NCBI RefSeq assembly: GCF_000002075.1
Contig: NW_004797314.1
Span: 1,432,736 to 1,496,735 of the forward strand
Length of the DNA stretch: 64,000 nucleotides
DNA from: Aplysia californica
Lineage: Eukaryota
Direction of reading: 5' to 3'
The position numbers and the translations under genes were made by a program. Positions 11,432 through 64,000 of the stretch are shown here, in pieces (the first letter of the stretch is position 1; the number at the start of each line of letters is the position of its first letter). The notes under the pieces were generated by a model that was not told the origin of the DNA, did not search any database, and saw only the letters and a program-made list of their open reading frames with translations.

Positions 11432-11464
<33 letters not shown>

Positions 11465-16807: not shown

Positions 16808-17057
16808 CACAACTTATTTATTTTTTGCTCCTCCAATTTCTTTTCTTTTTCTTTTTGTCCCTGATATCTGTTTTAACTCTTCACTAAGAAATCTTTATTC
16901 TTGCGTTCTTGTTTTAGTATTTCATATTATGTATTTTTTTCTCCTTCAATTTCTTGTCTTTACTGGGTTTTTTGTCCCTTGTACACATGTTAACTCTCAC
17001 AAACAATCTTTACTCCCATATATTAAAAAAAATGTTTTCCACATTATTTATTTTTTC
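16808..17057. repeat. Degenerate tandem repeat, about 116-bp unit, at the giant gene's stop codon and 3'UTR
   Basis: Units start near 16808, 16923 and 17040 (CA.ATTAT.TATTTTTT...TTTTGTCCCT...TTAACTCT.CAC...AATCTTTA). Confidence 0.7.
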
Positions 17058-17389
17058 CCAGACTTTTGTTGCCTCCCTCTCCTTGGGGCGGGCTGAGTGG
17101 GTTCTTCCACTGTTGCCTGTTTGTCTCCTCCGGCCTGAGCCTCGGACAACAGCCTCACTATCCTGTCCTTGTTCATGGTCAGCTGACTGGTCTCCTGGCG
17201 GGCCTCAGCCAACTGTTCTTGAGCTGTGGTCAGTTTGTCCTTGTGAAGACCTTGGTCCTTCCCTCGGCTGCTCTCAAGGAGCTCCAGTTCTGCGCTGACC
17301 TCTTCTTCCAGTGCGCGAATCTTGTCCTGCTGTTGGATCAATTGCTGGTTAACTCTGGCAAAGTCTGCACTGAGCTCATCCACTTTGTC
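17048..17389 (-). CDS. Giant TM protein last exon v46 (terminal coiled coil, basic tail)
   Basis: DKVDELSADFARVNQQL...PRRGRQQKSGKK, TAA at 17048-17050. Confidence 0.86.
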   Translation of the reverse strand, partial: DKVDELSADFARVNQQLIQQQDKIRALEEEVSAELELLESSRGKDQGLHKDKLTTAQEQLAEARQETSQLTMNKDRIVRLLSEAQAGGDKQATVEEPTQPAPRRGRQQKSGKK

Positions 17390-20300
17390 CTGTGGATAAA
17401 TGGTTTTAAAAAATTTTGTTTAATTGAAAACAATTACACAAAGGAATATCACTTATAAGTACCAAAAAAAATTATGAGTTGGAAAAGAAGGCACTTAACA
17501 CAAATTTTCCTCACTTCACCCAGGTGTGAATGGGTACCTTGCCATAGACCTGTGAAAGATTTTTCAGTATTTTAGAGCCTGTATAATGGCAGCGTGCACT
17601 GTATGTTTTCCACGAAGTTAAGATTGTTTCCCAGTTGTTTATTATTGAAAATTTTACTAAGATCTACAACATGTTTACCCTTTACTTTCTACTGGCGGCT
17701 AGCATTCCCTGCCCATGCACCAGAGTCACTATTAATAAATATACAGTGTAGTCTGCTGTTAGCAAAATTTGCAGGACCACCTAATTTTCTTTTGATTAGC
17801 CGAGTTTTTGGTTTAGAGAGGTTGCTCAAATGCAAAAAAAATTTTTTTTCGGATTGATCGCGTTTGATTTAAGCAGACTCTACTATACATAGTGCAAGAC
17901 AAAAGTAACTTAAGACAGGTTATTTGACCTATTAGAGGAAACTTATAGGTATTTTTCCCAAGGGTGCTGCTTTTCATTGTAAGTAAAGAAACAGCTTGAG
18001 TTATTATTTTGGCACTACTTTCACCACAGTGTTGGTTATTTGAATGGTAGAGCTTCAGAACCTACAACCATCTCCAACAGGATGTTGTACAAAATAAATA
18101 ATCTTCTTTCAGAACCTTGGCCAAGAAAAGCTGCCGAACGTAAATTTGAACCTAGATTGGCAGTACTGGCAATAATATTAGTGTAAAGGTGCTTATATTC
18201 AGACGAAAAGATGATTCATAACCAAGCATGTCAAAATAAATATGCTATACATGTATAAATAAGAACTACAGCTTGATGATTGGTATACATCCACAAGCCA
18301 TGACAGTCTTCACGTTTCTGGAGAGTGCTACAGAGCACCAACTCTGAGCATTGCCAAAGTGCACAGGTCACCCAGTATAGAAACAGACAATATTCAGTCA
18401 AAAACTTGTAGGATTGAATCCTTTATCTAACCTTGCAGTCCTAATAGCAAAGCAATAACAAATGAAAACCCAGAAATATTTTTGGGAGTCTCTCTGTTAA
18501 CTGATCTTAACAAGAAATTAATATAGCATTGTCATACTTAATTCAGGTGCAGCCATCATCAGATATAAAATAACATTGTTGTATTGAGTCATAGCCGTAC
18601 AAAGAGATGGGTAAATAATAATTACAACATAACACGAATAGGTCGAACACAGCAGACTCGAAATCACGCATCCTTCGAACCATGTCTGCAGTCCCATTTT
18701 TCTTCTTCTTTATCTCTGTAAGATATCCTACGAACTACGGATCCCTTGAACTATTGAGGCTGGTCCTGACAAATTCGAGCTATCCGTGTCATAGTGTATG
18801 TAGGAGAGAAGCAGAAAGACCATACCATACCTAGACAGCTACCAACCACCCATAGAATAACAAATGGGTAATTTTAGAACTCCAAAAAGAAGGAGACAAC
18901 ACAAAAGTTCCATGCATTGTCAAGAAGAGAGCAAAAAACCGTAAACATTCCAAATTTTACCTGAGCAGAGTCTGGGGTTGGAGCAGCCTTCCGTGGTTTG
19001 TCTGTTTTGTCAGCTCCGTCTCTGTCCAGTGAATTCTCAAATGTTTGATACAAGGCGTTGCCACTCATATTTGCCATCACAAATGATGGAGCAGCCTGTT
19101 CTTGATTGGCTGCAGAGTTTCCTGAGGTAGCAGAAAACAAAAATAGCACATACATAACTTAGAATCTTGAGGAAGAGTAAAAATACTTTAAAACTCTGAA
19201 ACGTACCTTTAGAAGGAAGTAAAAGGAATCATCTTGACATGAATGTTTAAACAGAATACTGCTGCCAGTACCATTTTCACTATGCAAAGTTTTTTTCTGA
19301 CTGATAAGCCATTGGTGAACTTGAATTTTGTTATTTTGTTTAAGCTTCTGAACTTTCACAGCACTTGACATGCAACTAAAATTAGCTCACTATTCAGGAA
19401 TTTATATTCAAACAGACAGTCTTTACAACTGTATCTGTTATCCAATCTATTGCTGCATGCAAGACACAGACAGTAAAGTGTGGTACTGGTATAAATAAGG
19501 GTAGGTAATGTGTCCTTTCTATCCCTCTGTTATTTCTGTCATCGTCACCTCTTTTACTTCTTTCAACACTGCAGGATCACCAAATATCGATATTCCTCTC
19601 ATCAACTCAAAATAACACGAGTGAAAAGAAGCTTATTATACCCTCACCTGACGTCGAAAATTTACTGCTCAGATTTGCCATTTGTGACACAACATTTTCA
19701 TGTGATCCTTGACCTTTAGCCTGATGAACTTTGTCCTCCATGTCTCCCAGCATGCTCTGGAGCTTGTTCAGAGAGGCAAAGTCATTGTACTTGGCAATTC
19801 TGTTCGTGGTGGTCACGTGGGCAGGGAGAGAAATAATAAAATATAGCATTTTGGGGGAATTTAGCAACATGAACTAATAGGATAACAACTTTGAGATCTT
19901 TTTTAATAACCAAACTTCTATGTCTCTCTATATGAATACTGTTAGTACACTTACGTCCACAAAAATATTTTATAGGAGCTTTTTTCAGTGACATAGTAGG
20001 CCTTTACACTTGCACAAAGAGAGGCTTTGTGGCTTAAGGCTTACCCTTGGGACGGGAGCTTTCAGTTTATATCATTCCTTCCCATGGAGCTTGCATCATG
20101 AAATGCAAAAATATGAGAGGCAAACACCCCTCAAAACAGACATATTTTGCTCATTTCCAATATTAAATTTAACTTATAATCTCACTTCTTGTATCAGCAT
20201 TTACTTCTTTAAAAAGTCAATTTACACGACAAGCAGGAATAAAATAAGAACAAGAAGACACAAAAACTAACTTTTCTACACCTGAACCTCCACTAAAAAG

Positions 20301-23300
20301 CAAGCACGGTACCTGAAAGTTTTAGTTTTAGTTAGAGTTTTAAGACATTGGCAACATAATTAGATTACATTAAATGCCGAGGATTAGAGAAGTAATAAGA
20401 CAGTAACAAACAAAGAAAAGAAGGAGGACAGATAAGGACAATAAACATTTGATAGGGAAGGAGCAAACCACACCATAACATACAAACAAAACATCATTAA
20501 CTCTTTTATCTCCAGCAAGTTGCTCCCAGTGGCTCGTGGTTGGAACTGTCATTCCGGTGAGCCGATCAGCAGCTCCGGCACATTCTTTTAAGGTGACTTT
20601 GACATCAAATTACTTTTCGGTATTTGCTGAAAACAGGTCTCTTTTATCGAGATTCCATTCATTAGATGACACACTATCAAAATAGGTTGACTTGTTTGAT
20701 GTAATGATCAGTTTAGTGACGTTTTTGTCATTTTTAGATTTAGTACCACAATAGGGCCTCGGCATAGTGGGTTTAACCCCCTCAGAGATAAAGAGTTAAA
20801 CATCTTTACATGGGAAAACCTTTACACAGTACCTCTGAGCCATTCTTTCCTTGGTCAGCTGTGCCCCATCTCTCATGGTATCAGGCATGAGACGCACGTC
20901 CAACAACTCCTCCATCATGCGTGTCCGGGCGTCCTCGCTCGGGCAACTGTCAAACATGGACTGGAGAAGCTGCTGAGCTTGGGCAGGGCTGAGATTTGAG
21001 CCAGGGTCTGTTGCATTGTTCTCCACCCGCCTTGTCTTAGACATGAACAAGTCATCACAGACCACAGTAAGGGCACGCTGGTATTCCTTCTGGAATTCTG
21101 GCGATGTGTCGTCCCTGAGGTCACCTGGATAAAAAAAACAAAACGCATCACTTTTGAGATATAGTGGAGTCAGTTTAAACCAAACACACTTAATCTGAAA
21201 AAGCAGTAAACCAAAATAAAATAAAATCACTGATCTTGTTTTTTCTTTATATATGAGCAACCTCTCTAAACTGAAGGTGTCAGGATAGGCAGATTTGCTA
21301 GAGATGCTCTTTTCAACATCTTATTTAACCCCTTCACTGCTGAAAAATTTCCATCAACATCTGTACCTAGAAAGTTAAATGTTAATTCAAGGAATATTTA
21401 AACTCAGAGAATGGTTTCAGAATAAGCAAAATCACAAGCTGTAACTAAAACAACTAAAACATGTGTCAACCAGATGAAACAATACGAGTGGAGAATACAA
21501 GCCAGAACCTACGTCTACCCAGCAGTGAAGAGGTTAAGCTAGTTACATCATAAACTGTAGTATAGGGCTAGAAACCACTATTATTTCCAAATAAAAAGAG
21601 ACAGACTGGAAGCGCCAGTGAAGACTTCAGATAAGCCCTAACAAAATCAAATTGACATCAAAGTACAGGTGAGGAAAGGCAGGCTAAGGCAGACACGAAG
21701 AACATACTCTCTGGGAAGACACAACAGTAAAATAAAGCTCAAACCATCAACTTTTCGGTGTTGTTAATAGCGTAACAGTAACATACATTGCTAGATTGAT
21801 TATAGCAACGATAAGTCTCAACAGCAATTCACAGCCAACTTACCAGACTTGATATGAGCCAGGCAGTGTGTCAACACAAGCACGTACTCTCCCACCGTCT
21901 CCAGGCGAGCAGCTCGGAGGTACAGGATCCTGTTGTTGGCATCGAAAGCAAAAGAGTTCCGGTACATGTTGCGAGAGAGCTGAGGGCTGCTGGGAATGCT
22001 CTCCGCCAGCAGGATGTTGACGGGTGCATGCTGGCAACGGCGAGCTATGAGCTGAGCAACATGGCAACCAAACTTGTAGATGACGAGAGAGCGAGCATTC
22101 AGCTTGTTCAAGTCCATGGGCTTCAGTTCTTTGTCGTTCTCCCAAGACTTTTCACGCTCGTCTACAAAACCATCACCTGGAGGAGCAGTAGGGTCAGGAA
22201 TAGGAACACCATCGTCTAATAATAGTGGGAAGTTATTTAGTACCTAGTACCTTACATGGATGTTGCGTGAAAACTAACAGTGAACACTCTTTTCAAAGCA
22301 TACACATCAGGCATCTGAATGACATTCAAATATGTGGCTTGTTATATTCATTTATAGCCTACTTTTTGAATACTGTGATATTTGACTTTAATAATAGGCC
22401 TACCTAATGATGATTCTTTCGCACACAAGTCAGACAAACATTTATACTAGATACTAGTACAGTCACTTTCTCCCCCATTCTAGCCACGAACCACTCACCT
22501 TCTGGCACACTCGGTGCAGACCTAAGACTGCCTCCAGCCACCGCCTGTTTCATGTTCTCCAGTTTCTGGTACAGCGGGGAAGCCATCAGCAGAGACATGA
22601 GCTCAGCCTCGTTGAGTGGAGCGGCCATTGCGTATGCTGGGGGCATCTCCTGGCTGCCCTGAGGCTGTGCTGGTTCGTCCGATGCCCCAGAGGTGGGCGC
22701 TGGTAGGGCTGCTGCAGTGAGCAGAGGCATTGACTGCTTCTGAGCACTGAGACCATCTGAGTTTAGAGCCTGGTTCAACGCCAGAATCTGCAACAAAATC
22801 CATTATATATATATTATCAGTTTCAAGAATTTACACCAGCCTATTACCATCGAAAGGTACAAACTTTAAGGACAACATAAAACACAAAGCAAAAGACTGG
22901 ACTATTGTCCATATCTAAAAGCATTTTTTACCACAAAAGTAAAAGAGAAGCGGCAGATAGATCCATTCATTTTCTTTTCCTATAGAAACCCATAAGGAAC
23001 TGTCCTACAATATCAGCTCTTTCAAAGCCCCAATCGGCGAGACATCTTGCTACATCAACCCCCAACCCTGGAAATAAACAACACCCATAAACTGAAATTG
23101 ATTACATCTTGAAAAGACTTCCCCTTTCTATAACATGGCATCAAAGCCAAAGGGCACAATCCAAAACAACAGCTGGGTTAGCAATAAATGGAAAAATCTA
23201 AATGAGAGGAAACTTCCTCTTGGAAAAGCAGAACAATTTAGAGGTGACGTCCCCTCTGCCAAGCATGTTAAAAACACATCAGCAGATTAAGGTTAAAATA

Positions 23301-23520
23301 GAGCAGGAAACCCAAAACTGAAGAAACTCCAGTCAGTATTATCAGAGATACCTTCATGGCCTTTAAGATTTAGAGCAAAAACAGAACATAAACAAACAAA
23401 TCAGTTCAACTATGAGTTGAAGACCATGTAGTGAGATAGGCCTACCCTTAGATCTAGTGGGTGTGAAGCGTGTGTGTTTGTTTATATGTGTGGGTGAGTG
23501 TGTTTTGAACATGTGAGTGT

Positions 23521-23572
<52 letters not shown>

Positions 23573-26500
23573 AGCTGGGGATGATACAGAAGCAGTAGAA
23601 CAGCTCTTTTAACACAACACAAGGACTCTCACATACCTCGTCATTCTGCAGTCTGTCTCTCTCACTCCTGAGCTGAGCCTCCATGGCCATCTTCTGCTCC
23701 GCCACATTATCCTTCACCTCCTTCTCTCTTGCCTTGAGCTTCTCTTCCTTGCGTTTCTTGAGTTTGTCCTGCAGATTACTTTGAATGCGCAGCCTGTCCG
23801 CTTCCATCTTGGTGACCAGCTGGTTCACTGACCGTTCGTGTTCCTTGATCAGTCGGTCTTGCTCATCCTTACTTGCTCCGTTAGCCTTCATCTTTTCCAG
23901 ATCGGCCTGGGTAAACATGAAATAAATATCTTGCTTTAACTAGTCACTTCTAACTATGCACTTCATCATCAGTTGATGTACAATGAGAATACAGTAGTCT
24001 CCGCCTAAACGCCGGTGCTCGGGAGGGCTCATGAGCATGTGTTTTCACGGAGCGTGCGTTTACATGAACCTTTGCAAGGGGAGGAAGGGACGTAGTCATC
24101 TCAATTCCTTATTACTCTAGTAATCTCCCTTGAAGGAGGGGGTCATTTTGGCAGATAAGGTGACGACACCTGACCGTTTTTTGAAGGATTCCCCGACAGG
24201 GGTTAAGAACACAAAGGCGTTGAATGGGGGGGGGGGGGGGGGGGGGGGGGGAACAAACTCAAAGTAAGGAATATGTACTATAAACGTCGGGAACAGATAG
24301 CCTAAGAGAAAACTGTTGGCGATAGTCATAGAGTCGACGGACCAGCCATGTGGCTTTCCAAGCGACCGTCCACGACCGTAAATTCATGCAGAATCATCCT
24401 CGAGAAACATTTTCTCTTGTGACTCGTTGAACAAGTACGTTATAAGTTCTTTAAAAGCAGCTTATTAGGCTTACTTGGCTAATCTTTAATCCTATAGAGG
24501 CCTGTCTAGTGTTTTACGGCATTTACGCATTTCGCGCATCAGGCCTAGATCTAACTAAACCCTCTCTGATCTAACTAAACATTACATGCAATCACTCAAA
24601 CTCAAACACCAGTCAGAAACCTTCTCTCAAAGATACATTTCCAGTGACCAATCAAAAAACATTTCAGTCCCCCCAATCCCCCCCCCCCACCCAACATTTA
24701 ACCGACCAGCCCGAGACCGAGACCTATGCGTCAGTGGAAAGTAGTGTGTGTAAACGCTGTCTATCACTCTCTTTGTCCGGCGTGAGGGGCACTCTCACCA
24801 AATATCCGGTTTTCTAGTAAATTCTAGCTTGCCGTATGCAGTCTGTGCAGGTTATTATAAGTTATAGTGAAAATTTCCCCTTGCCAAGCTTAACTTGTCG
24901 GTGTGTTTCGCGAATCGGAGCGTACATTTAGAGGGAGTGACCGTGCGTTTGTACGTCTAAATCATATAGTAAAAAAAACGTCAGATGACGAAAGCGTGCG
25001 TTTGAGTGGAGCGTGCTTTTGTATGGCGTGCGTTTAGACGGAGACTACTGTACCTAACTGTATGAACTAACATCTTTCATTAGCTGATCATTTCTAACTG
25101 TTTACTTCATCACCACTTTTGGTACAGCAAGAATACCATCATGAACTGAAACATTTTTTGTTAACTGGCCACTTTTAACTGTTATCTTCATCACCAGTAG
25201 AAACACAATGAGAATACCAACTCCACATCGTTAGTACCAAAAATGTTGTCACATTAACATTGGTCGAAATAATGAAAATGCAATGGAGTCTGCATAACAG
25301 CAATCTGCGGGACTGCCTAATTTTCTTTGGTTTAGCCAGGTTTCAAATTTAGAGAGACAGCTCAAATTAAAGAAACAAAATAATTAGAGATTTTCTTTTC
25401 TTTTAACTTTTCGATGTTTTCGGATTAACAGTGTTTTGTTTAAGCAGACTCCACTGTATATTCATGGTGAAAGATTGGCTACTTATAAAACTTAAATCTT
25501 TAAATCTTTGGTTTAACACAATTCACTATGCGTTGCCGCGGCAGTGCACTTGTGTCCACCTGGCTTTCCACGAGCCGGGGGAAAAAATCGGTCTGAACTC
25601 GACATACTAAACTCAGACACGAACTGTGTCCAAACTATTCAAGCTATTAATATGAAATTTAGCTTAGATTTTACTTAAAATGTTCTTTCAATATTATTAG
25701 AGAGAAAGATGAAGGAAAGAGCAGAGAAAACTATATAGCCTTCATCTGACTGCCACTCATCGGCACTCCAATTAGCCATAGCAATTTATAGTAAATCTAT
25801 GGTCTAGATCTAGCTTTTCTTCGACCTTTTCAAGGCTCTAAAATCAATCCGATCCCCTTGTTTTTCTAGACTTATGTCTACTCACTTTCTTTGCCGCTTG
25901 TATCTAAAACAAAGCTCAAAACATGCTCCATGTAATTTAACAAACACAAAAATAGCTGTGGCACTATTGTTTTTAGCGGCTGTTTTTTTTGTTCTTCTCG
26001 TCCATGAAGATTTCAGTGCTCGCTTTCTTGCCATGATTGGCGGTGACAAAACAACAAAACTAACTCGTACTTGGAGAAAAACTGGATCAGAACAAGCTGG
26101 CAAAAGTTTTTACAAGCCACAAGTGACCTATTTTTTTCAGTAGAAACCTGGATAAGTGGTTCGGGTTCAATTTTGTAGACTGGTGTTTTGATATGACTAT
26201 TGTCGTAGCTCGTGGACGGAAGCGCGCGGTAGCTACAAATATACTCGTAATAAGGGTACAATAGATTAATCAACAGAATCTACTTAACTATTTCAAATTA
26301 CAATTTATATCACGACAATTTGCACAGATTCAAGAGGTTTTGCAAAATAGTTATTAGTTTTGGAAGAAACAAATGAAACAAAACTTTATGAATTTCTCAA
26401 CAGTTCACTGAACACTTTAATTCTTACCTTCATTTTCTCCTTCTGCTCCTTCAACATTTCCTCTTTCCTCTTGTTCAGAGCTTCAATGTTCTTCTCCTGC

Positions 26501-38500: not shown

Positions 38501-41500
38501 CATCAATTCAGTCTCTGCAGGCCTACTCAGCCAAAGAAACAACATTTATATAAATTTATAGGTTTACTATTTACGCCCTTTTATTCTCTCCATCCGTGGA
38601 CCAGAGCAAAAGGCTGAGCCTCACAATCTTGCATGACAATAGTCTTAATGTCCCTGAAAGTGGAAGTTATCTGCAATTAACATCTGCACTGTTACTTTTG
38701 CACACTGCTGATGTTCTGTTAACTTATTAACCTACTCCTCCTCGATGTTTCCTTAATCTTGAAATTCTTGAACCTGGTAAGCCCCAGGTGTGCCAACCTT
38801 ACAGAAATAGCTCTGAGCTGGGTTACCGGCCCTACAGAATTCCAAGAAATATGCTCCACACCCGTTAACCAGCCTTATGGTATACCAAGAATTACACCTC
38901 AGGTTGGCTTACAATCCGAAAAGGTTCCGCCCAAACCCAATATTTAAGGGAAAACTTTCTCACCTGCATGTGTGCAGCTCCGCCGGTGATGTTGACATTC
39001 GTCACTGTGCTTGCCCCAGCAGCCTTCCCACGCTGGAGCTGTTCCCACATTTCTGGGCTGAGCGGGATGTTGCCAGAGTTGAGTTTATCCAGCAGGATTT
39101 TCAGTGCTGCCATAAGGTCATCCTCACGGCCTTGACTTGTGCCTGGGATTTTCATTACAATTTTAAGGGTCTGACACATGACGCATATATACCTTTTTAC
39201 TGGACATTCAGAACATTGTTGTGGGATTTTTGTAAAATAAGGAGTTCTTGTCTCTTGCAAAAAGTTGGCCATAGGGCAAAAATCATTCAAAAGTACATGT
39301 TTCTCCCAAAACCTAATAGTGTAACCACCCCCTAGAAAAAGTCCTTCAACTGATAACCTCAGTTTTCAGGATATTTGTTCACTTCAAATTGCACATATCA
39401 ATGAAAGTTTACTTTTGTCAAAGTAATTACAAACAATGAAAATGTACTTGAGGATAGTAGCTGAGATTACCCTCCCCTGAGCATTGTGCAAATGTGGCAA
39501 AAAATGTCTTTGACTGCCACATCCATAAATGCACTATATACACTTTGGGGTACAGTGTCTTCTAACATCTTTTATCTCAGACCTTTGGTGCTAATGGTGA
39601 GCTGCTAGGTCGGCAGAAAGGAGAGCGCATACAGCTGTAGCAAGAGTTATCCCTGGAGGAGCAAGATTTCTAAGTCTAAAACTCACCGGCAAATTTGCCC
39701 TTAGTTCCGCCCTCTCCCATCGTGAGACTGGCTCCGACAATTGTGGCACCAGCAGCAGCTGCCGCAGCGCCTTGCAGACCGTCCTTCTCAATGGCTGCTT
39801 GGCGGGCTTCAAGAGCAGCCATTTTCTCTGGGTCAAGGTCATTGAGCAGTTTTTTTAGTTCTTCATTTTGCTGACAGATGCGGTTGTAGAATGACTCGAG
39901 GTCTTCTTGTTGACGGGCCAACTGAGAGGCCAGATGTAGATTCTGATCTTCCAACTTGTCATACAGAACCCGAACATTGAAGTCATCCAGATCGTCAGCA
40001 GATTTACCTGTTATAGAAGCATTTACATATTATCAGGTCACAGAAAGATGACAGCCAATAGACAAGCTGAGCATAAACTGCACTATCCAGAAAAAAACCT
40101 AACTCTTTATATTAGACATTACTTAACAAAAAATGTCCAGCAGTTTAGCAGCATTTTCAGCATTTTTTAACAAGCCTAAATTAAGCTCATGACTTTCACC
40201 TTTGTGAAAACAACTTTTGAAGCTAACAAGCATCATTCTCAACACTTGCCCTGGGTACAGCTTTCATACTCTTCACTGTGTCATAAATAGTACAGTGAGA
40301 GGCTACATTCCCATTGCTACTTGATTACCAGCGGACTTCAAATTTACACATGAGCTTGCTTTTTTCAGATACCAGGGATCATAACAGGTGGAATATGCGT
40401 TTATTCATTTATCTGATAAAAGCAGAACTAGTGCTGACAAAGGTTCCAAAGTAAAGATACTATGCTGGTATAGAATTGTTAAAATAACAGTAAATACAGA
40501 GTACATAGCACAGAGCAAGGCCTACCTTTATCAGCCAGAATGGGATCAGCCTCAGCTCCCTCCACTCCTGGTCTGGGGCCAAGAGCATCAGTTTTACTGA
40601 AGATCAAATACACAGTTATTTTGTAACGAGAAAGCCTGTCAAAAGAGAAGGAGCTTGACTGAAAATAAAGAACAGCCTTGGACAAATTTATAGAATTCTG
40701 ATGGGACCTGAAGTATTGTCTGATTCTTCTCAGGCTATCTTTGTTTCTTTGTTTCTAATCTACACACTCTTTCTCTTTATTTTAATCCTCATTTTCTGAA
40801 TTCTCCCCCCCACCCCCACAATTTTAGTAAAAAGACAAAACAACAGAAGACAACAACACTAACTGTGTAACTGATGTTATGAACACATTCTGCTTCATTT
40901 CATTGCGTTCATGCATAAGAAGTTTGTATAAAAACATGTAATCACCTGATATATCTCTCTGGCCAGTTATCTGGATCATAACGTAGGTACGATGGTACAG
41001 GTGGCGGCAGACCAAGTTTCCTGTACTGTGGCTTCCAGTGTTTGACTGGATAGATTACTGAGTCATGAGGACGCCAGACAATGACTGCCACCACAAGAAG
41101 CAGTACCAAGGCAGCGAAGAAGGCAATCAAACCTGTGTAGTGAGGGAAACAAATCTTTCATAAATCAATCTGAAAGTTTCAATAGGACAAGTCATAAAAA
41201 AGATAAAAAGTGTTATAAACGACCTATCACACCCCCTTTCCATGCAAATTGTAAGATCATGCAACGGCAGATATGTACCTCTATAACCAAAGAAAGAAAG
41301 GTATAAAGAACTTTTTTAACCATCTACCATAAGGCTATTGTCAGAATAAGCATCAATGTGTATTGCTCTTTCGAGTATGTATCTATATAACTCTATAGGT
41401 TTTGTAATTAAATTCCTGCATGTGGTTGAATGATGCATCTGATATGATATGTACATTTTGTCAGCTTTACTTTTCTTTACATATTAAATTTTAATTAGAG

Positions 41501-44500
41501 TAATATACAATATAGATTTTTATGTATACCTGCATGTGTTTATACGGTCCTGTACAGCCAAGAAAAATGTTCCTCTGGGATAATAAAGTATTATCTTATC
41601 TTATCTTAACTTGAGTCCTTAGGAAAGTAAAACAGTTGTCAGATACATCTATCTGGTAATGTAAGGCTGACATCAATATCTAAAGACCCTCCTAGTGTCT
41701 AAGAAGATCTTTATAAACCCAAACAGAAGTGTTACGCTTAATGTTTGTTAAACTACGCTTCTACCGACAACAATTGTCTCATAAGAAATGACATTTCAAA
41801 TACAAACTTTTAAGGGACAAATGCTTGTCAAGGACATATGGGTCAAAAGCCCTTCTTTTCTTTGATCAAGGGGGGGGGGGGGGGGGGGTAAGAAAAAATG
41901 GGAAGGGAGAACTATCACCTCATCACTCATCACAATTTCAAAATAGCAATCGTTAATTTCGTGAGGTCTCATGACACTTTTCTCAACAACTGATTAAACA
42001 TCTTCTTTGAATGGTTTATCTTTTGCTATCTTTCTGGTTAATTCCTTTTAAAATAATGTTCAAATATCTTAAAAGAGAGAACATTCTGTTTCAACTTATG
42101 ATAACCAGTCCACGTTTAGAAAAGCTGTATTTCTTGTTGAAGGGCATAATGGGTCCGTATATGACCTTTTGGCATGATGGGGAAGATATTTACTTCAAAG
42201 TGAAAAGTAGAGCCATTTAAAGGTTACTCAAGGCCAAAAAGGGATGAATGGAGTCAAAGATACCCTCCAAAGAACAACATGAAGATCCTATGAGCAATAC
42301 ACCAGGGTCACATCCGACAATCACATCTCCCCTTGACACCTCGTAGCGTAAGAGGACAGAAAAGGTAAAAAATGAGTAAGTCTAATTCTCTACTTTATAC
42401 TCGCAGTTCTTTAGGTATTTTTCCAGTCTCACTACCCTGCAGAGACAAAAATCTCACCAACAATAATTCCCCAGTCGGGCTCCTCGTTGGCCACACTCTG
42501 CTTGTAGACCCCAAGTCCCACCAGGTTGGAAGATGTGGCCGGCATCATGCGGGCTGAGGTGGAACTACAGGAAGTACCAGTCGCCTTCACTTCAATCGTC
42601 ACCTCCCTGCAGATAGCAAATTATTCTAGTCACATTTGTTTCTTTAAACAACAGGTCTTCTTATCTTCTGTTACAGTTAGCACTGGACATGAAAATCTAT
42701 TAAACGTAAACAACTATCAAGTAGTTCTGTGAGACTTTAAGATCACATGCAGCTCAAACAAAACAAAACCAAGGTTTTTGAAAAAGGGTGCCTCAATACC
42801 TGACTAAATAACCTTTCTTTTCTACCTCCCTGACAGAATGCACTTTAGCACTTTTTACAATTTGAATAAAATATAGATCAATACTCGCTATACTATTTTT
42901 TTAAGAGTTAAAAACTATTGCAGTATGTTTTATGTTCGTACCAAGAAGGCTCTTGCGCATCAGCAAACACATAAGTCCCAGCAGCTGTGAAAGCATGAGC
43001 AAAGGATGTGATGGAAGCATTGGTGTTGTCAATCAGGTTCTGTAGCTGCGTGAAGGCACCATAGTCAAAGGTGGGGTTGGAGTTGTACAGATGATTCTTC
43101 ACATATACCTGAAAAAATTCAAATAAAGACAGTCTTAGAAAAAGGTTTTAAACACATATATCAGCTAATCATCATTAACAAAAACAGCAACACTTATTGA
43201 AACATATTAACAAAATTCACAACAACAAAATTTCAAATTGCAGAAACAACTGAAAGATATTGTCGAAAGAAAATTCACATTTCATCTTTTGAAGAATCCT
43301 ACATCAAAGAAGTACAATGTTTAAGGCTCTTTTTTTTTTATCCAATACGCCAACAATTTTTTTTACAAAAGATCGGATAGAAGGGAAAAGATGCCCACTG
43401 TCTAGACAGAAGGACATTGCACGTTAGCAAAAAGTTAAAAACAGGAGAGGGGCTTACAAATCCTAAACAAGACTGGCCCACAACTTAGACCCCTGAAAAC
43501 TTGTAAAACAGTGTCTATCTGATGTGTTAAAACTTGCTGCACCACTCTAGAGCACAAACATGAAGTCAGAACGCTAAAACTCACAGGATAGTGGCTTGAC
43601 GCACGGTCGGTGGAGTTGATCCAGACATTAAAGAGAACAATTTCTCCCAGCTCCAGACACAGGGCAGGATTGGTGATCATGTTAAAGGGGATTGTGGTTG
43701 ACAACAAACGTCTTCTTCCTATCGGCACACCAGAGCCCAGTGTTGGCAGGTCATCTGTAAGGTGGGTCAGAAAAGTAAAACACCATTAACTTGTAATCAA
43801 AGAATTCATTATGATCATGATTCTAAAATTATAATTTATTCACGCACGTTTGAAGAGACATATCTGAATATTTATCACTATCTCTAAGCTTTTGGAAAGC
43901 CTGAGCATGAACAGCTGCTGGCATGTAACCAGCCTCAGTGACTCTGTTAATCAAATGTCTCATGACAGTAATAATGTTTCATTTGATGGGAATGATGTAT
44001 TCATCTCCTTTTATCAATTTTAAACAGTCAAAAATAAATCTAACTAGTGGTTGTTTTTTTAAATTTTCTATTTTCCACAATAAATTTAATGTCCTTAATA
44101 AAACACCTTTCACAAGGATCATAGTCTCTCCTTGCTGAGCCAAAAATTGAACTCATAATCATAGGGTTGTGGGTCTGATGTCATAACTACAAGACTTACA
44201 CCCCCCCCCCCTCCCATGTCACTATCTAAAACATAATATGAAAACATGGATGATACAAAATGCATACTGATAGAGGAGACACCTCCAGAAAGCTATGATT
44301 TCTCTGACTTGATCATGTAACCAATAATCATATTTACACAATATATCTTGGGCAGATGCAGCATCAGTGTACACGGAGCCCGCCACACCGGTGTCAAAGA
44401 AGTTGATGACATAGACATTGCTGGAGCCGGTGGTGGCCTCGCTTGGCCCGTACACATCCGTCTTGGTCTACAGTCACAGAAAAGGGAACAGAATTTCAAT

Positions 44501-46916
44501 ATTATCAGAACAATAACAAAATAGTATGTGCATAGCACATCTCTTGCTTGAGTTTCACCAGATATCATTAACGATACATTATTTTGATTATTTGTCTTTG
44601 TACATTTCTTTCATCATACCAGGTTATTTGAGAACAATAAAGAAGAGCAATTTTGACTTTCAAGTGAATCAGTGGCTTGGTCAAGCTGTAACCACTAGAT
44701 TTACTTAAAAGTATGTTGTGAACTTGATGCAGCATTTTCTAGCTGCTTATACTCCAGTAGTCAGCCATAAAACATGTATAATAGTCTTTTAATTACTTTA
44801 CGTCCACTTTCAGTTTTGCTCTTTTATTAGTCAAGAAGTACCAAGATGATAGTAAACATTCAGCCATGATTTCATAGGGAAGGGAAGGGTATATTTTCTT
44901 ATCGAACATCTTCACTATATTCCAGTATAAGTATCGAATATCATGACAGTCAGTACATATCCTACTTTAGCATTCCTATTCTCCCTTTTCTTGGTTCATT
45001 TTTCATTTCTATCCTCTTTTGAAACCAATTTGGGTTTTTTTCCATTTGTCAAGCAAGTTTTCTAAATATCACAAAATCAGTGCATTTTGCAAACTTACAA
45101 AAGCGGTAGTTGTGCCAGTGACAGGATCAGTGATGGAGATACTGATGGTTCCATCCGAGGCCAGCTCTAGCTGTACGCCCGGCTGAGTTGTGCTCTGACA
45201 CGTGATGTTGCAGATCTCTGTGTAGTCTTTGTAGTTGTCACATTGGCAGCTAAGCAAGACAAAAAAACAAGACATAGCATATGGGGTCAATAGGTTTTTA
45301 ATTTTCATAGCATAAATAAATTTCAACAAGATTCTGACTTGATGAAAAGTAAGACTAATCCAGTAAGCAATATTTGATAAAGTTTTAATACACTATGGTA
45401 GAATCTTTCAATTTTATTTACATCAGTTAAGAAATGGTCAATGAAGATACTTGAGATATTAAAATCGACAGAAGTAGTAAGCAAAATAGGCCATAAACTT
45501 GGAAGTCAGTTGAACTGTAGGCGGAAGAGCACAGGGTATACAGGAGGAGGAGGAGGAGGAAAAGAAAAAACAAACTACACTGTACTTACTATCCCAGACT
45601 GACTTGCACCGATCCTCCATTAGGGCAAGTTGTGGTACAGTCCACAGCACTGGGGTTCTTGCAGGTTCTGTCACTGGCCCAGCGTACCTCCGTGGTGGAA
45701 CAAGAGCTGTCCACAACCTGCTGGCAGTTCGCATCCGAGTCTCCATTGACCGCTTGACCCTCCGCCTCGTCGTAGAAGATGTAGCCCGAGAGACACTCGC
45801 AGCTGCCATCAGAGGGCTGGTAGTAACGGTATTTGCCGATACATGAGCACATTGAGCTGCCCACACTTGATGTTGCCGAGCTACCACAGACCCGACAGTA
45901 CTGCTGACCTTCAAGGTCATTGTAGGTACCCTCTGGACAATTGGTGCAATCCGCATACTCTGTGGCTAGTTCTCTGGTTCCATACATGCCCTGGAAGTTA
46001 ATATGGTGTAATGAAACTAGGATGAGATATATTTGAATCGAAGCAATCAACAGTAACAGTGTGACTACTTAATCCTACTTATGATAAGTTTCAATTGGGT
46101 AATAAAAGAAGTCTTAGTAAATTATTTTTTTTTAAAATAGGATCATATTAGATTTAAAGACCATAGTACCCTAAACATTTAGAAATAAAGTGGCATAATC
46201 CTGGGGAAAGAGCAGTATTTTTTTTGTTCCAGGAACACACTTGATAAAGGATACATGTTTAAGAAAATGTTTTTTCATTCCCCTTGAATGAATATATGAA
46301 GTCGGTTAGAAATAGAATGATTTTAGATAGAAATTCACTAGCTATTATCCTCATTTAAACATCATTTGTCATGACAATTTTTCGTTGCTGCAAAAACCAT
46401 TATCTTTCCCTACCACAAGGAAAAGTGCTAATCAAATTGTACTTTGAACAATCTTTGTACTTGAGAACAAGGTAACTTTGCTGTGTAAACAGTGGGGTTT
46501 TTTTGTTTTTGCAAGTCTTACCGCAGGACATGGCAGATACCATGGGGAACCTTCAGGACAATAGGAACCTATAGGGCATGGGTTGTCAGTGCCATGGTGA
46601 GTCATCGCGGGACAGTAGTAGCCCGCAGGGCAGATGTAGCAGTCCGCTCTATCCGTATCATTGCCATAGTAGCCGGCAGGGCAAGGGGAGCAAGATTTGG
46701 CCAGGGTGTCTCGAATGCCACTTGGGTGGTCAGCCTTGTATCCTGGACGCAAATAGAAAATACAATTAGCAGGAAATACGAACCAGACAAAAATGTTTTT
46801 CAGAAAAGTATATTTATAATGCTGGAACTCTATATCTGATATATCTGTCAGTTTTGTTTGTTTGTTTGTTTGTTTGTTGAAATTTATGCATGTCGTTGTG
46901 GTACTGAGCTTTAGAG

Positions 46917-46981
<65 letters not shown>

Positions 46982-49900
46982 GTGAGTGTCTGTGTGCGTG
47001 TGTGTTTTGTAAGCACCACCGAGCACTTTTTATGGATTCTGGCGCGTTATAAATTCATTTATTAATATTATTATTATTATTATCTGCGTACAAATATACT
47101 GGTATTGCCTTTACTAGTATAGTGAAATTGTCCAAGATGACCATCCTTCATCGAGGTGACATGCGATTGTCTTAGACAGGTGGACATCTTGGGTAGTATC
47201 ATTATAATAGTTTTAAAAATGCAAGGGTGGAAGTTGGAAGTGGCAATTTATGCGGCTAATTATCTTGGACTGGCGGTCGTTAAAGCAGATTCGACTGTAT
47301 TTTTATTTTGTTAGTAGTCGACTCAAACTTCCTCCTAACATTTATGTAAATAGTAGGGTGAGTACCCCTAAACAGTCTCACAGAAGGTGCTACTGCAGGC
47401 ACCATTCCCACTGCCATTCAGCCACCAGTTTGCTTCACATCTGGAGGCAAACACAGTATATCATAGCTCCAGGCTTCAGTGCAGACAGAAAGTGTATGAG
47501 TTCACCAGCAGCTGGACTTCACTCGATCGTTTGCAACAGCGATTATGTGTAATTGAGAATTCAGGATAAATCTGATAACTTGGTTCGTGAGAAATATCTT
47601 TTGTACATGCTTATCCATTATCTTTTATTAGTACTAGATGTTCAAAACTGTCTAACATTAAAGTTTTTAAAAAAAGTTATTGTTCACAGCTGATTTTTAC
47701 TTCACAAGGAAAAAAGTAGAAAAATACCTAGTGGGCACATTAAGCTCATGTTGCTGCCCTCGGGACAGTAGAACGGGTAAAGACACAGTATGGGCGTGTC
47801 TGTGGCGTTTGGACACTTGTAGCCACCGGGGCAGATGTATGGATCTCCAGTTGTTCCATTACAGAAATATCCTGGCCGGCAATCGATTTCAATTGAGGCC
47901 CCTGTAATAAAAAGGAAATAATTGAAACAAGAGTGAATTATTCGAGCACATAACAAACAACAAAAAACTTGAAAACACGAGACTGATTTGTGGAATCTAA
48001 AAAGATTAGAGTTGGAAATTAGCAGTTTAACAAAGTCAGCATAATAACAGTCACATTTCACTCCGATGTAATTAAATTAATAAAAACAGTGGAAAGAACT
48101 AGAGAGGGCAGATCACACAACAGTCCCTACTTTTTTGTTTTAGTAGAGGTTTTACGGTACTCGAATAATGAATTTTCATAAATCAGTTTTATTCTCATAG
48201 CAACCTACCCTCTGGACACTCAAACGTCTCTCTGCAGGGTATGCCTTGAGTGTTGTCCGTGTCATTAGGGCAGTAGTACCCTGGTCGACACAGGGGACAG
48301 TCGTCAGTTGATCCTGCCCCAGGTGTGTCCCTCATGCGTCCCGCTGGACACAGGCGAGGCTCATCTCCCTCCAGACAGAAGAAGCCGGGAGGACACAGAT
48401 TCCACTCATAGCTTGCCATACCTGAAGACACACAGAGAAAATAACCAAAGGGATACACTGAATTAACACACACATATTGTAATATAAAGCTGGCTATACT
48501 TGTACAATGTTGTTGGGGAGTTAAAAAGGGCAAGAGAGAGATACTTGTACATAAAGAACAAAAAAATGACAAACCCTACAGGAACATATCATGATACAGC
48601 TTTTTTGTTTAAAAAAATCCAAAAGATAAGTCTCTATAGAAATTCAAACGTAAAGCTAATTGAGAACATCATTTGCAAACTTTGACGTATTCAATTGGTA
48701 AAATAAAAAATTCTAAGACTAGTTGAACAATTCAATAGTGTGATGGTTTTTGTGTTCTTGTTTCCACATTCTTGTGTGCATATTAGTTATTATTCCTCGA
48801 GCACAGACATGAAATATTGATGTTTTGAGACAGTGTATAACAAATTTAAACAAATGTAATCATATAACAGCAGTCCGACAGTATCAAATTGTTACGCCAA
48901 TACAGTTCAACCTGCTCTAATGGCCACCTGTATGAGACAATCACCTGTACAAATGGCCACTTTCCATTTTTCCCCTTGCATTTTTTGGGGGCATTATAAT
49001 GACACTGTGAGATTGCCTCTTGTATAAAGTATCCTCTTTTCTCTTAGACAATTTTGACTATATCTCCATACCAGTGTAGTTGCACCAATAGCCAGCTGGA
49101 CAGGGGAAGCAATCAGTGATGACAGCTGCTCCGGTAATGTTCCTGTAAGTCAAGCGAGGACAGGGCTCAGTGCCGTTGCCTTTCAGACAGTACTGGCCAA
49201 CAGGGCACGGCTCTGGGTTGGTGGTTCCTGGGGTAGAGAAACATATGTTCCAAGTCTTGTGAAACACAGCTCGCTCGGGTGAAGGGTTTAAATCAGCACA
49301 TCTCATAATTCTTAAGTCACCCTTAAACTAATGAAGTTTGTAAATACTCTATCTGCCTTAATTTTAAAGTGAAAAGCTCGGCATTGCGCCAAGTAATTTT
49401 ATTCTATTTATTAGATGATTTATTGACACTCAGATGAATATCAAATTAGCATTATCATCTGCGGAACAAAGATCAGAGTTGAAGACAATCAAATCATGAA
49501 CAGAGTAAAAAAAAGAAAAGTTAAATACAGAAGAACATACCTCTATCAATAAGTTCAATGATAATTTGTGTAGCAATAAGAAAAAATTGTGTCACTTGTT
49601 GCTCTGAGTTGGCTCGAGATATCTGGCCAAAAGCCTCGATTTTCTCATAACCTAGTGCTCCTGACTCCCCTGTTTTTATCAACTTTTAGGGCTTGAACAG
49701 ATCTATAATTTGATACCACATTGGTACACAGTCAAAATGCAACAAATGACTCATTTTGGCGTGAAGTTTTGCACATATCACCCTGCATATAACCGCCCTT
49801 AACACAATCTCCTTTTACTGTAATCTTAAACTAAAAACTAAAACCACAGCTACCTCCTTTCAAAATTCACATCTCCATGGGGACAATCTCCAACAAAATT

Positions 49901-52900
49901 ACTGAAATACTGTCATTAACAAGGTGCATGCACCTCACAGCTATTTGAAGGTAAACTGATTAAGTAAAGCCAGTGCTCTTTGAGAGAAAGAACAATGGAA
50001 GAAACTCATATCTAAGAGCTTAAATACCTTCAGGACAGAGGGATCCGGCAGGACAGCTAGCGCAGTCTGACTCCTGAGCAGCTCCCACTGTGTCCCTGTA
50101 TGTGTCGGCAGGACACGGCACTGGGAGCTCTATGCCGTCAGGGCAGTAGGAGCCAGTGGGGCAGAGGCCAGCACAGACAGTGTCAGCAACACATGCGGTG
50201 AAGTCTGATGTGGAGTTGGGCATGTTCTCCAATGAGCCTGACTTGCAGTAGTAGCCAGCTGAGCAGTTGCCATACAGTTGGCCGTTTCTGAGAAAATAAA
50301 GAGATGTGGTAAGAATGTAAAATAGTAAAGCATTGAGCTCAGAAACAAGAGAACAGAAAGACCACTTCAGTCGTCCTTTTTGAGAATTTATCTTTTGTTC
50401 CTTCTTTTCACTTAAACATTTCTGAGCAAGTAAAGAAACGTTGGAAGTTACAATGATAAAAACAACACTGCAGAGTAATGAAAAACTGGATCTAAAGTAA
50501 AAGCAGTTCAAGTAAAAACAATTGTGAGGCAGTGTGGTGAAATCAGGTGCTCGTCAATATAATGAAAGTGAATAAACTAGCATTTTTCAGCAGGTTTATG
50601 GATTTTTATCGAATTTCGTATTTTGGCTCAACACCTTTCATGCCCACTAAAGAACACATTTCTGAGTGGATTTTACTGGAAAAGGTTGATTAAAGACACA
50701 AAAAATGTAAATTTTGAGTTTCCACTGACTCTCAAGCTAAGGATATTATAACTAATCTTTGGCAGCCATTTTCTCACTAATTTTATCTCTGAAACCAGGT
50801 GACCCCCACCTCCTTCGTTTGCAAATATCTGAACTTCAATTCAAGAGAGAGGGGTATTTTTTTGCTAGAAGCAAGACAAATGAACAAGCTTTATGACAAT
50901 ATTAATAACTCCATATGCCCCAAAATTGACTAGCGCCTGAATCCACCGCGTCGTGACACAATTGTTCAATTGAACCTTTTAGTTTGTTAACAATATTCCA
51001 ATTTAAAAGATAAGCATAGAAATATCAGTCTTCACCTGCAAAACTGCCCAGCCTCACAAGGCAGGCAATCTGACTGAGACTGAAGTTTAGTCATGTTGTC
51101 GTATGTGAACGTTCCATCTGCACAAGGGATTGGAGTAACAGTACCTACAGAGAAAATACAAAAGAATACATTTTATGTCATCATTTCGACAAGCTATGCC
51201 GGTATACAAAATTTTGTTTTCTCCGCATTTCTTGCAAGGAGGGTCCACCTAAAGGACCATTCGTTTCCTACTGATCATCAGACATGAAAACCAGTTTGTA
51301 CTCTTAGACTATACAGGCTGATTCTCAAAGCTACAATGATTGCACATCTAGATATCTTTGGATATTGCTAGAGCAAAAATTTATTGAATTTTTGTCAAAA
51401 GATAAGTCACCAAAATACTTTATCTTCCTTAGTTGTTTGATACTGCACCAGTTGATGAGATGGTACTATGTAAAATTTACAGGTTTTTAGCACTGGATAT
51501 GGGATAAAGTATGCAAGGCTGTTATATATGTCTGGTTTGGATGATGAAAGACTTGCGAGTTGATTCTCTACAGAAGGATGGTATATCAAGTTAAAAGAAC
51601 AACCCATTATAGTCTTTCATTAAAGAAATCACAACATTAACATCTGAAACACAGACAGCTTATGAAATTACCAGTGTAACTAATAGCTCTGCTTACCATT
51701 TGGACAGAAATTGTATTGTGGGCAGTCCTTCAGTTCTGGAGGAATTGTGCTTGGGCAGTAGGAACCTGCCGGACATGAGTCACATGTCCACTGACCGCTA
51801 CTAATTTGGAACAAGCCTGGTGGGCAAATATTAGGATCTGCAGTGCCTTCAGGGCAGTAGTAGCCGACAGGACACAGATAGCCAGACGGTGTCGGAGAGA
51901 TGATGCTGTCGTTAGCTGGACAATAGTAGCCCTGTGTGCACAGACCTGCTGGATCTGTCTGGCCGTCCTGGTCACAGTAGTAGCCACCAGGGCAAGGCAA
52001 ACAGTCTGTCTCCGCCTGACCACCTGTGGAGAAAGATACAAGAGAAGGAGCCTAAGTTCATCGACGTGGAGTTACTTTTTCAGTCTTGTATCTTATCAGA
52101 CACAGACCAGTCATTTTTGGAATTGACATATTACTGTAAGTTTGATTTCAACCTACCTTGTCTGTTTCATAGTTATAAAATTCTTTGCTTTGATGCAACG
52201 GACAAGAGGATCTGAAAACTGATACTAGGAGCACTATTTGTCCATTGTACTGGTTCATTCTCCGGCAGCAGATTGCCACGACCCACTGGGATAAGATATT
52301 GAGAAATATGTACAAAGTGTCTAGACCATGTTAAGAGGACAGAAAATATAATTAAAACTGAAAACTTTTCTTTCAGGCTTATCAATAAAACAAACACAAG
52401 GAAAAGGATGCTTCTACAATGTGTGTATTACCAAGTTAAAACTACAGTTAAAGCTCCAGTTCCCACTGAAGTTTTAAATGAATTCTTTACAACAAAGCAA
52501 GACATTATTCAGTGGTCCCACTCCCAGACAGTTTTACAAAAAACTTCACAGATCACCTGCTTTGATTCTTGATTACTTGATTCCAGAACTGGGGTCTTCA
52601 GAGACGGATTCTATCCATAACGCCTAACCCCTCCTCAACAGGGTTGAAAAATTTGATTCTTTAACTGATTCAGCCCGCAGCACCGCTCACAGCGGCTGAC
52701 AATCTCCTGTGTTTTGACGAAGAGTCACTCAGAGCAGCTCTTATCTATTGCTCCCTTTTCTTCGCATCACTTTCCTCTCGTCTTTTTTCCGAACTGCTTA
52801 CATTCCAACCCTTTATTCTGGTTTTATTGAATATTATTTTGTATTCTGAACATTTTTGTATGTCACACATAAGGTTTTTATCAAATTAAGATATTCCTTT

Positions 52901-55900: not shown

Positions 55901-56258
55901 TGTGTCAGCAAATTTGTATTGGCATGTTACTGCTTTTTAAAAAATGCAGTAGCCAAGTGCACAATTAAATGAAGATTACCAAAATGATTGTCAAGTAAGT
56001 TAAGGTAAATAAGAACAAACTTAGTATAAGAAAAATTGCAAATATTGTACTTTCATTCACACCAGCTTTTTACTTTATGAAACGTTAACACATTCACCAT
56101 TACATTAGCCAGCTCATAAATATATAATTTGATTGTGAAAAGTCCAGCCATGAAATGACCTACGTCTTCAGTATCATGCCCTTTCTGTCATTGATATAAT
56201 GATCCATGAAATTTGACAGCAAAGATAACAAGATAATGAAACTTTTATTTTTACATGG

Positions 56259-56303
<45 letters not shown>

Positions 56304-56790
56304 GACACACACACACACACACATATGCAATCAAATGTTTCAATGATAGAGGCATGACTCTAAAAGAGAGCCCTATGGGCTAACAAAATCTGTTCCCTAG
56401 CTTTTGAAATTAATTTTTCATTCTGAATTCTAATCAGACGAACCAAGAGACAGTAGAATACTAAAAAAAACTACCAGTTTTTGATAGGAAATGTTCCTTC
56501 GTTAAAGAGCCCCATACCTTAAAAATTTGTACTTATATTTNNNNNNNNNNNNNNNNNNNNNNNNNNNNNNNNNNNNNNNNNNNNNNNNNNNNNNNNNNNN
56601 NNNNNNNNNNNNNNNNNNNNNNNNNNNNNNNNNNNNNNNNNNNNNNNNNNNNNNNNNNNNNNNNNNNNNNNNNNNNNNNNNNNNNNNNNNNNNNNNNNNN
56701 NNNNNNNNNNNNNNNNNNNNNNNNNTGTGTCAGTGTGTGTACATGTATGGGTGTGTATGTACACATGTGTGAGTGTACGTGTGTGAGTGT

Positions 56791-56860
<70 letters not shown>

Positions 56861-62939: not shown

Positions 62940-64000
62940 CTGAGTGCAGACAACAGAATGGTACCTCAACACTGAGTAACATTTTACCTTCACATGCCAC
63001 AGATAGAGCAAAATTCTATGTTGCATCAGAACAATTTATAAAAACCCTCCACTTCTAGAAACATGCTTTGGGCCACAGTGCAAAAGTTCATTATGGGCTG
63101 ATCAGTTAACAACGATTAACAACAAAAACAACAAAAAGTATTGAGATATAAACATGGATCATGAGACAACAAAAATATTTCAAAGTACAAGGAACTACAT
63201 GAGGCATACAAAGAGAAAATGGTGATTAATTTTTAAAAATGGGGGTAAAAACCATGATGGACAACTAGAGCATAACATTTTTTCTAACAAATGGCCATTT
63301 ACCTGTTGATAAATTATTGCAAGTCTTGTGCTGTGTGCCAGCACATACAGTTCAATAACGTCAGTCTTAAAGTTACTAGAGTGGCTTTTTTCCACATAGC
63401 ATTTAGTGCTGTCAGCATACTTTGAAGAGAAATTGGAGAAATTCGGGCTCATACAACCTCAGCGACATTATTCTCCTATGACAGGGGTTAAGCAGAAACA
63501 TAAAGATCCCAAAACATAATAATCCATGATTTAGCTGTTGTAGTGAAGAAGATTGTGATTCAGGCATATACAGCCAAGCGAAATGTGGTGATCTTGGCTC
63601 TGTTCACATCAGCAAAAGATTTTATTGAAGTTTCAAGGCCAAAAGTCCTACCTCTAAATAAGTGGCTAATAATGTGTTCCACAGGCCCCTTTTCAGGTCA
63701 AAGTAGAGAAAAACTTTCATCAGACTGATGTCGGCTGATATGAGAGAATAACTTGACAGTTTGGGACAGAAACAATAGTAAGATGGACTACCTAAAAGAT
63801 CTTACTAAAGGTTTTAAAAGTTAGCACTCTCTCAACCAGACCCTAACTAGTGAAAAGGTAGAGGAACATCGGATCCGTCACCCTTATATTTGCATGCATC
63901 TGTGTCATAATAGTAACTCTTTTTGCCTTGCACGCAAAACATATTTAATCTATCCACAACATTGGAAGATACTTTATCGAGTATCACAGCCTTTCTGGTG

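Follow-up and report, generated by a model that had tools for sequence, protein, structure and literature searches.

The window analysed here, a stretch of 64,000 nucleotides from the genome of Aplysia californica, encodes on its minus strand a real, conserved and unannotated domain, namely a predicted variant of the zincin fold that lacks the catalytic glutamate and is carried by an ancient giant membrane protein. Zincin proteases require this glutamate as general base, and as none is present, it is unlikely that the domain cuts peptides in the usual manner. The protease glutamate was likely lost before the major eukaryote groups split. Across eukaryotes, two histidines, one aspartate, two or three arginines, an asparagine and a serine have been conserved, a pattern which suggests that these residues are unlikely to be idle. 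We consider the chance about even that the domain is a repurposed zincin, binding or sensing a metal and an anion without turnover. With this work, a domain missing from Pfam is defined and six of its residues are singled out (His0, His+4, Asp+13, Arg-16, Arg-31 and Ser-29, counted from the first His of the HxxxH motif), providing a first functional handle on giant membrane proteins so far annotated only by their Cys repeats. Members of this protein family occur in Discoba, in CRuMs, in ancyromonads and ichthyosporeans, and in animals.

Gene model and architecture of the giant protein

The motif HCLAH is encoded by CACTGCCTGGCTCAT on the minus strand at 21868-21854, as reported in the first-pass annotation. 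The GT donor (phase 1) of the exon 22176-21844 leads to the AG acceptor of the exon 21124-20833, and the spliced peptide across both exons reads ...HIKS-G-DLRDDTSPEFQKEYQRAL. This splice, to DLRDDTSPEF, had already been written in that annotation and is borne out by the exon ends and by the joint 21124/21844 (CT..AC ends), which is present in Logan contigs of two runs belonging to separate studies, X4 and X5, both presumed to be RNA, although no listed run is recorded as such. A single X5 contig of 20,796 bases spans the joints from the 3' UTR up to the Cys repeats, and two poly-A read sets (2026, tissue unspecified) gave almost no reads over the exons of the giant gene. In total, 30 exons from 45990 to a stop near 17050 form one open frame of 2,073 amino acids, with a lone hydrophobic peak at residue 387, the HCLAH motif at residue 1751, two HxxxH and no HExxH. 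The HCLAH is not a chance occurrence, as the HxxxH at this place is conserved family-wide. The domain had been placed at 21080..21960, a range that includes the motif but begins too late: the domain starts about 215 bases earlier, where the exon opens at 22176, and its backing helix and first strand occupy 21960-22176. The features of the gene are as follows.

21844..22176, minus strand: exon A, with the N-terminal D-x-x-D/E segment, the backing helix, three strands, N-x-[YF]-R-N-S, R-x-x-R and the active-site helix with HCLAH (splicing; model pLDDT 93.5)
21854..21868, minus strand: HCLAH, with His0 at 21868-21866, the Cys replacing the catalytic Glu at 21865-21863 and His+4 at 21856-21854 (alignment)
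21905..21916, minus strand: Arg-16 and Arg-13, after the strand preceding the active-site helix (245/269 and 247/269 rows)
21953..21970, minus strand: N-M-Y-R-N-S motif (Asn-34, Arg-31, Asn-30, Ser-29), lost jointly with the His pair (alignment)
21108..21110, minus strand: Asp+13, candidate third metal ligand (230/233 His-intact and 0/9 His-lost rows)
20833..21124, minus strand: exon B, with the Asp+13 loop, the SPEF cap and the domain's C-terminal helix (to about 21020), then the start of the tail
17048..19799, minus strand: last three coding exons, the C-terminal tail (19799-19648, 19121-18961 and 17389 to the stop near 17050)
To about 15540, minus strand: 3' UTR of the giant gene
22499..40007, minus strand: 17 exons of a Cys-free predicted coiled-coil stalk of about 1,100 residues, rich in E/K/R/Q, with a Pro/Ala linker
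40946..42606, minus strand: single predicted membrane helix over two exons (42606-42458 and 41132-40946; Kyte-Doolittle 3.25, sole hydrophobic peak of the 2,073-residue model)
42942..45249, minus strand: predicted extracellular membrane-proximal region with the RRRLL word and with HYPxY, a conserved motif
45590..63015, minus strand: Cys-rich CxxGxYC repeat exons (Ephrin_rec_like / GCC2-GCC3 type), in an array that continues at least 50 kb past the 64-kb window

The domain comprises about 145 amino acids and lies roughly 1,250 residues C-terminal to the single membrane helix, which is followed in order by about 110 conserved residues, the charged stalk, the linker, the domain and a tail of 281 residues. 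The stalk itself covers about 1,040 residues, 42% of which are E/K/R/Q and none Cys. The CxxGxYC repeats of the upstream exons match Ephrin_rec_like with E-values between 9e-5 and 3e-4, which do not reach the Pfam cut-off. More than 50 additional Cys-repeat exons are located at G000:C44:1496736-1546735 and the 5' end of the gene lies further out, so that the full protein must be longer than about 6,400 residues. In nine out of ten representatives longer than 3,500 amino acids, Cys repeats (26-123 matches) are followed by one internal membrane helix, a charged stalk and, near the end, the domain, while the Diphylleia record among the ten begins at the membrane helix. Several of them open with a hydrophobic signal-like stretch, and Pfam searches with 13 long members returned only Ephrin_rec_like in eight and nothing in five. 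From the order of repeats, helix, stalk and domain, the giant protein is predicted to be a single-pass surface protein with the domain at its cytoplasmic end, in agreement with the cytoplasmic tail proposed at first.

Contig C341 encodes a paralogue that shares this layout and has the motif HSLAH...DD. An exception to the layout is the 1,823-residue protein P0089 / P0168, which features two worn copies of the domain, both preceding the hydrophobic stretch, and no Cys repeats; one of the copies has Asn at His0 and His at +14. The RRRLL word (43585-43754, minus strand) precedes the membrane helix by about 130 residues and occurs at a similar place in the Anneissia and Fabomonas members; it is possibly a convertase cleavage site, at which the Cys-repeat rod would be shed. 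On the cytoplasmic side, the juxtamembrane stretch with LYDKLEDQ (39687-41132, minus strand) is conserved to Chromosphaera and Fabomonas, and we know of no family for it. Long extracellular arrays of ephrin-receptor-like Cys repeats are likewise a feature of the apicomplexan CRMPs (GCC2/GCC3), which have nine membrane helices (10.1101/2022.02.24.481622), in contrast to the one helix followed by a coiled coil and a zincin-like domain described here.

The Aplysia californica genome is 927 Mb in size and intron-rich. Within the window, a threonine-synthase-like gene is encoded at 2531-12484 on the plus strand (Thr_synth_N E 4e-26, THR4_C E 3e-5), and with its 3' end near 13000 it stands tail to tail with the giant gene, whose 3' end is near 15540. 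Between the two, a short element at 14870-14950 attracts most of the aligned poly-A reads with poly-T loose ends, and is a repeat frequent in the 3' ends of other transcripts.

Predicted fold and conserved residues

The first-pass annotation had suggested a zincin-like C-terminal domain by eye, and this assignment is upheld by structure prediction, in which the best matches are Wss1 and the minigluzincins. For the spliced relative P0016, which is 55% identical to the Aplysia protein over exon A, an AlphaFold2 model from 94 rows reached pLDDT 94-98 across residues 21-140, in the order helix, three strands, His helix, loop and long helix. When this model was compared with 48,161 chains using VIA-align, Wss1 came first (Z 9.3, rmsd 3.0, 108 residues aligned), followed by rows for S. 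pombe Wss1 (8.0), YbeY (7.7), abylysin (7.3) and 6mdx (6.8), the last of which we take to be SPRTN. Chains of YbeY rank third, seventh and ninth (Z 7.7, 6.6 and 6.3). We take all 24 of the top 24 rows to be zincin-type folds; the first unrelated row has Z 4.8, and a single chain reached Z 8 on the whole model. Exon A of Aplysia alone gives the same topology (pLDDT 93.5) and the same neighbours at Z 5-5.8, and the final residue of this exon falls on YbeY 120, so that His0 would sit on YbeY His114 if the helix is ungapped. Based on these models, the domain is predicted with high confidence to be a minimal zincin fold.

By sequence alone, the link to YgjP, SprT or WLM suggested in the annotation is not significant: profile comparison gave probabilities of 2% for YgjP and 0.5% for YbeY, no better than the 6% and 0.2% of the reversed control. 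A 57% HHalign match to E. coli YgjP was dropped since it vanished with a 23-row profile. Foldseek against the PDB produced no match at E <= 0.001, the top row being selecase at E 0.03, and sequence searches of the PDB yielded nothing significant. No family for the domain was found in Pfam, PHROGs, NCBIfam or PADLOC, where the best zincin-type hint was phrog_87 (E 0.14, 1/57). The Pfam families for WLM, SprT and YgjP-like proteins were absent both from the listed matches of 94 members (E <= 0.5; 25 of 50 families listed) and from the matches of 10 members at E <= 5. That the zincin link is invisible to sequence profiles explains the absence of the domain from annotation libraries. A full-text literature search found no published description of the family or the domain, although supplementary tables could still name the latter.

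Outside eukaryotes, the neighbours in the ESM Atlas are unnamed phage proteins (features 0.92-0.94), and in BFVD the phage protein A0A3G3BWI8 was matched at E 1.6e-5 and 3.1e-4. A relative bearing the glutamate was found neither among 62 candidates in viral contigs, with phage tblastn giving only E 9-10, nor in 401 Bacteroidota genomes, a search run without a positive control. Of 97 candidates in genome contigs, two were put down to chance, one lying outside any listed ORF and the other within a long RHS-like ORF.

The predicted fold is shared with Wss1/WLM, SPRTN/SprT and the minigluzincins (abylysin, selecase/jannalysin and the YgjP-like PF01863), all having a backing helix, three strands, an HxxxH helix, a short loop and a Phe-capped helix; Wss1 is described as a minigluzincin in PMC4559962. 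In contrast to these proteins, the present family lacks the Glu and the third His, has a loop about four residues longer with an invariant Asp, and features in addition an Asn/Arg/Ser motif, an N-terminal acidic segment, a location on the tail of a membrane protein and no Pfam match. Whereas YgjP rows read H-E-x2-H-x5-H, the Aplysia family is without the third His six residues past the second. The YbeY endoribonuclease (PF02130) is likewise a zincin fold without the catalytic Glu, with a small residue at +1 and, in Bacteroidota, Asp at the third position; YbeY is however small and soluble, its third position is +10 instead of +13, and there is no significant sequence match. Altered proteolytic motifs on a kept fold are also seen in PrpR (IrrE-like) and in substituted CLCA and ADAM domains; PrpR lost the HEXXH residues and the CLCA losses are scattered and recent (PMC6765138, PMC3650047), whereas in the present family every lineage examined has lost the Glu alone and kept the His pair. 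Taken by motif and profile, the domain falls outside the WLM, SprT, YgjP-like and YbeY families, and in its working it would probably be closest to a repurposed minigluzincin or to YbeY.

Residue conservation was assessed in an alignment of 276 domain rows, which were drawn from 275 proteins and include many near-copies, with gapped rows excluded per column. The annotation had proposed aligning orthologs for both His and the Glu, and the result is as follows: His0 is present in 257/267 and His+4 in 256/267 rows, while position +1 never holds Glu (0/267) and is occupied mainly by Cys (158), Ala (56), Thr (22) or Ser (19). Beyond the arginines listed above, Asn-34 is kept in 243 and Ser-29 in 256 rows, Asp+13 in 230/242 and Phe+18 in 229/241. 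The non-redundant set, covering the best 150 of 537 clusters, gave the same picture (His0 138/144, His+4 136/144, Asp+13 120/129, Glu+1 0/144), so that both His are conserved at 94-96% in all lineages examined within these 150; among the other 387 clusters, Glu-bearing members might exist. The three His-intact rows without Asp+13 resemble exon-only calls running into the intron. Asp-97 and Asp-94 of the N-terminal segment are found in 214/218 and 210/223 His-intact rows, respectively. Column +14, which matches the third His of YgjP once the two sequences are aligned on the next Phe, is variable, with His in 4/129 rows. In Aplysia this register holds Thr, in line with the Asp/Thr given in the annotation: the third His is gone, but a nearly invariant Asp directly precedes its position.

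Family extent and a vertebrate lineage without the site

A 10-row profile search recovered 537 clusters at 50% identity (E <= 0.001), and the family thus counts at least 537 clusters of relatives, from Discoba to vertebrates, a spread that suggests an origin near the root of eukaryotes. Thirty members were looked up, of which 18 had an organism name and all were annotated as uncharacterised. The named ones include the protists Percolomonas (Discoba), Diphylleia, Fabomonas and Chromosphaera (2), the invertebrates Intoshia, Anneissia and Saccoglossus, and among vertebrates a shark, lungfish (2), three ray-finned fishes, two frogs and two turtles. Two of the three ray-finned fish members are named si:dkey-103g5.4; this fish protein carries the same domain and belongs to the family, as do uncharacterised LOC proteins from other animals and from protists. 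All 18 named organisms presumably possess flagella or cilia, which would be compatible with a link of the family to cilia. We also assume mouse Gm9195/Gm32742 and zebrafish si:ch211-286b4.4 to be members, and these names were absent among the 30 members looked up. Expression of si:ch211-286b4.4, the putative zebrafish member, is reported to be higher in testis (10.1101/650218).

In a tree of 37 chosen rows, seven vertebrate rows form one clade (100/99), which is placed on the side of the Aplysia protein of a 100/99 branch, with a second paralogue group and the protists opposite. Six of the seven rows have lost one or both His, while the shark row retains both. Together with three look-alike rows outside the tree, these six make up nine His-lost vertebrate-type rows, in which Asn-39, Asn-34, Arg-31, Asn-30, Ser-29 and Arg-16 are kept in 0/9 and Asp+13 in 0/5, and in which Leu-77, Phe-67, Gly-66, Leu-59, Ala-45, Pro-41, Leu-19 and Gly-8 are all kept in 9/9. 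Seven other His-lost rows are also without Asp+13 (0/4) and have Arg-16 in 7/7, Ser-29 in 6/7 and the Arg pair kept; the N-terminal Asp pair is retained in 5/5 and 3/5 of the non-vertebrate His-lost rows. The joint loss of His, Asp+13 and the Asn/Arg/Ser residues with the core kept points to a site under selection, and the polar residues behave as one dispensable site upon a persisting fold. As the His-lost rows are mostly one clade, the joint loss amounts to about one clean event. The site-less vertebrate paralogue represents a natural control for a eukaryote-wide zincin that lost only its Glu. In lungfish, turtle, frog and fish (P0078, P0131, P0135 and P0140), the polar site is lost and the core kept, and the si:dkey-103g5.4 paralogue retains the site.

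Possible roles of the conserved site

Concerning function, the domain had been described as catalytically dead or repurposed. Dead as the default fits poorly with Asp+13 tracking the His pair (230/233 against 0/9 rows) and with the joint loss, and repurposed fits better. In the metal-and-anion reading, the two His and Asp+13 would hold a divalent metal and the nearby Arg, Asn and Ser would grip a partner bearing a phosphate or carboxylate. The Cys-repeat rod would extend outward from the cell, the coiled coil would space the domain away from the membrane, and the domain would dock the giant protein on, or report to, an intracellular partner with no peptide being cut. The bound metal, the anionic nature of the ligand and the role of Asp+13 as third metal ligand are inferred, and Asp+13 might alternatively be paired with Arg-16 or Arg-13 in a salt bridge. 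A precedent for Asp in this role is given by the Bacteroidota YbeY rows (L047-L076), which have Asp at the third position, against the third His of E. coli YbeY, in 20 of 21 cases, the remaining one being mis-parsed; these rows carry Gly at +1, as does E. coli YbeY.

The main rival, tentative and to our mind possible, is an active non-peptide hydrolase akin to YbeY, in which the metal would activate water and Arg, Asn and Ser would bind the phosphoester of an RNA, a nucleotide, a phosphoinositide or a phospho-sugar. The high ranks of the YbeY chains, the Gly at +1 of YbeY itself and the clustering of about eight invariant polar residues, as active sites look, all agree with it, and a conserved Arg serves the RNase activity of YbeY (PMC6943124). 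The family [YF]R...SF is set on YR...SF of YbeY, with Arg-31 opposite YbeY R59, in a profile alignment that is non-significant (probability 0.5%). This hydrolase reading is weakened by the higher score of Wss1 (Z 9.3), by the spacing H-x3-H-x8-D as compared with H-x3-H-x5-H/D in YbeY, and by a context that points to no substrate. If it holds, the giant protein would be a receptor-like enzyme. A wider form of the idea, which we regard as doubtful, is that a so far undescribed class of receptor-like enzymes, single-pass Cys-repeat proteins of 4,700-7,500 residues, has existed since the last eukaryotic common ancestor and persisted into vertebrates, with a Glu-less His-His-Asp zincin as its cytoplasmic output hydrolysing or sensing a phosphate-bearing molecule in the fashion of YbeY and with a second vertebrate paralogue turned into a true pseudo-enzyme partner.

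It is unlikely that the domain is a dead protease fold serving as a protein-binding or structural cap, its His, Asp and Arg being kept for hydrogen bonds and salt bridges. Such a cap would be compatible with the complete lack of Glu (0/267) and with the persistence of one vertebrate paralogue without the site; zincins with substituted motifs are frequent, and their role is unknown (PMC3650047), and PrpR, also a structural neighbour here, retains an IrrE-like fold without HEXXH (PMC6765138). However, purely structural residues should persist with the fold, whereas the polar set vanishes jointly while the core stays, and both His are 94-96% conserved over the lineages examined. Decidedly unlikely is an atypical protease whose general base was relocated, for example to a partner protein or to the D-x-x-D/E pair of the N-terminal segment, and which might cleave the stalk that carries it: the conservation of Asp-97 and Asp-94 and the predominance of peptidases among the closest folds speak in its favour, but the active-site helix is without an acidic residue, the cleft is lined by Arg and Asn, and the Asp pair is kept in the non-vertebrate rows that lost His. 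Highly improbable is a common helix-sheet arrangement without zincin homology, to which the lack of useful matches to the zincin families of Pfam, NCBIfam and PHROGs and the Z below 6 of exon A alone would lend themselves; against it, all of the top 24 structural rows are zincin-type with the first unrelated one only at Z 4.8, and the conserved HxxxH coincides with the zincin His helix.
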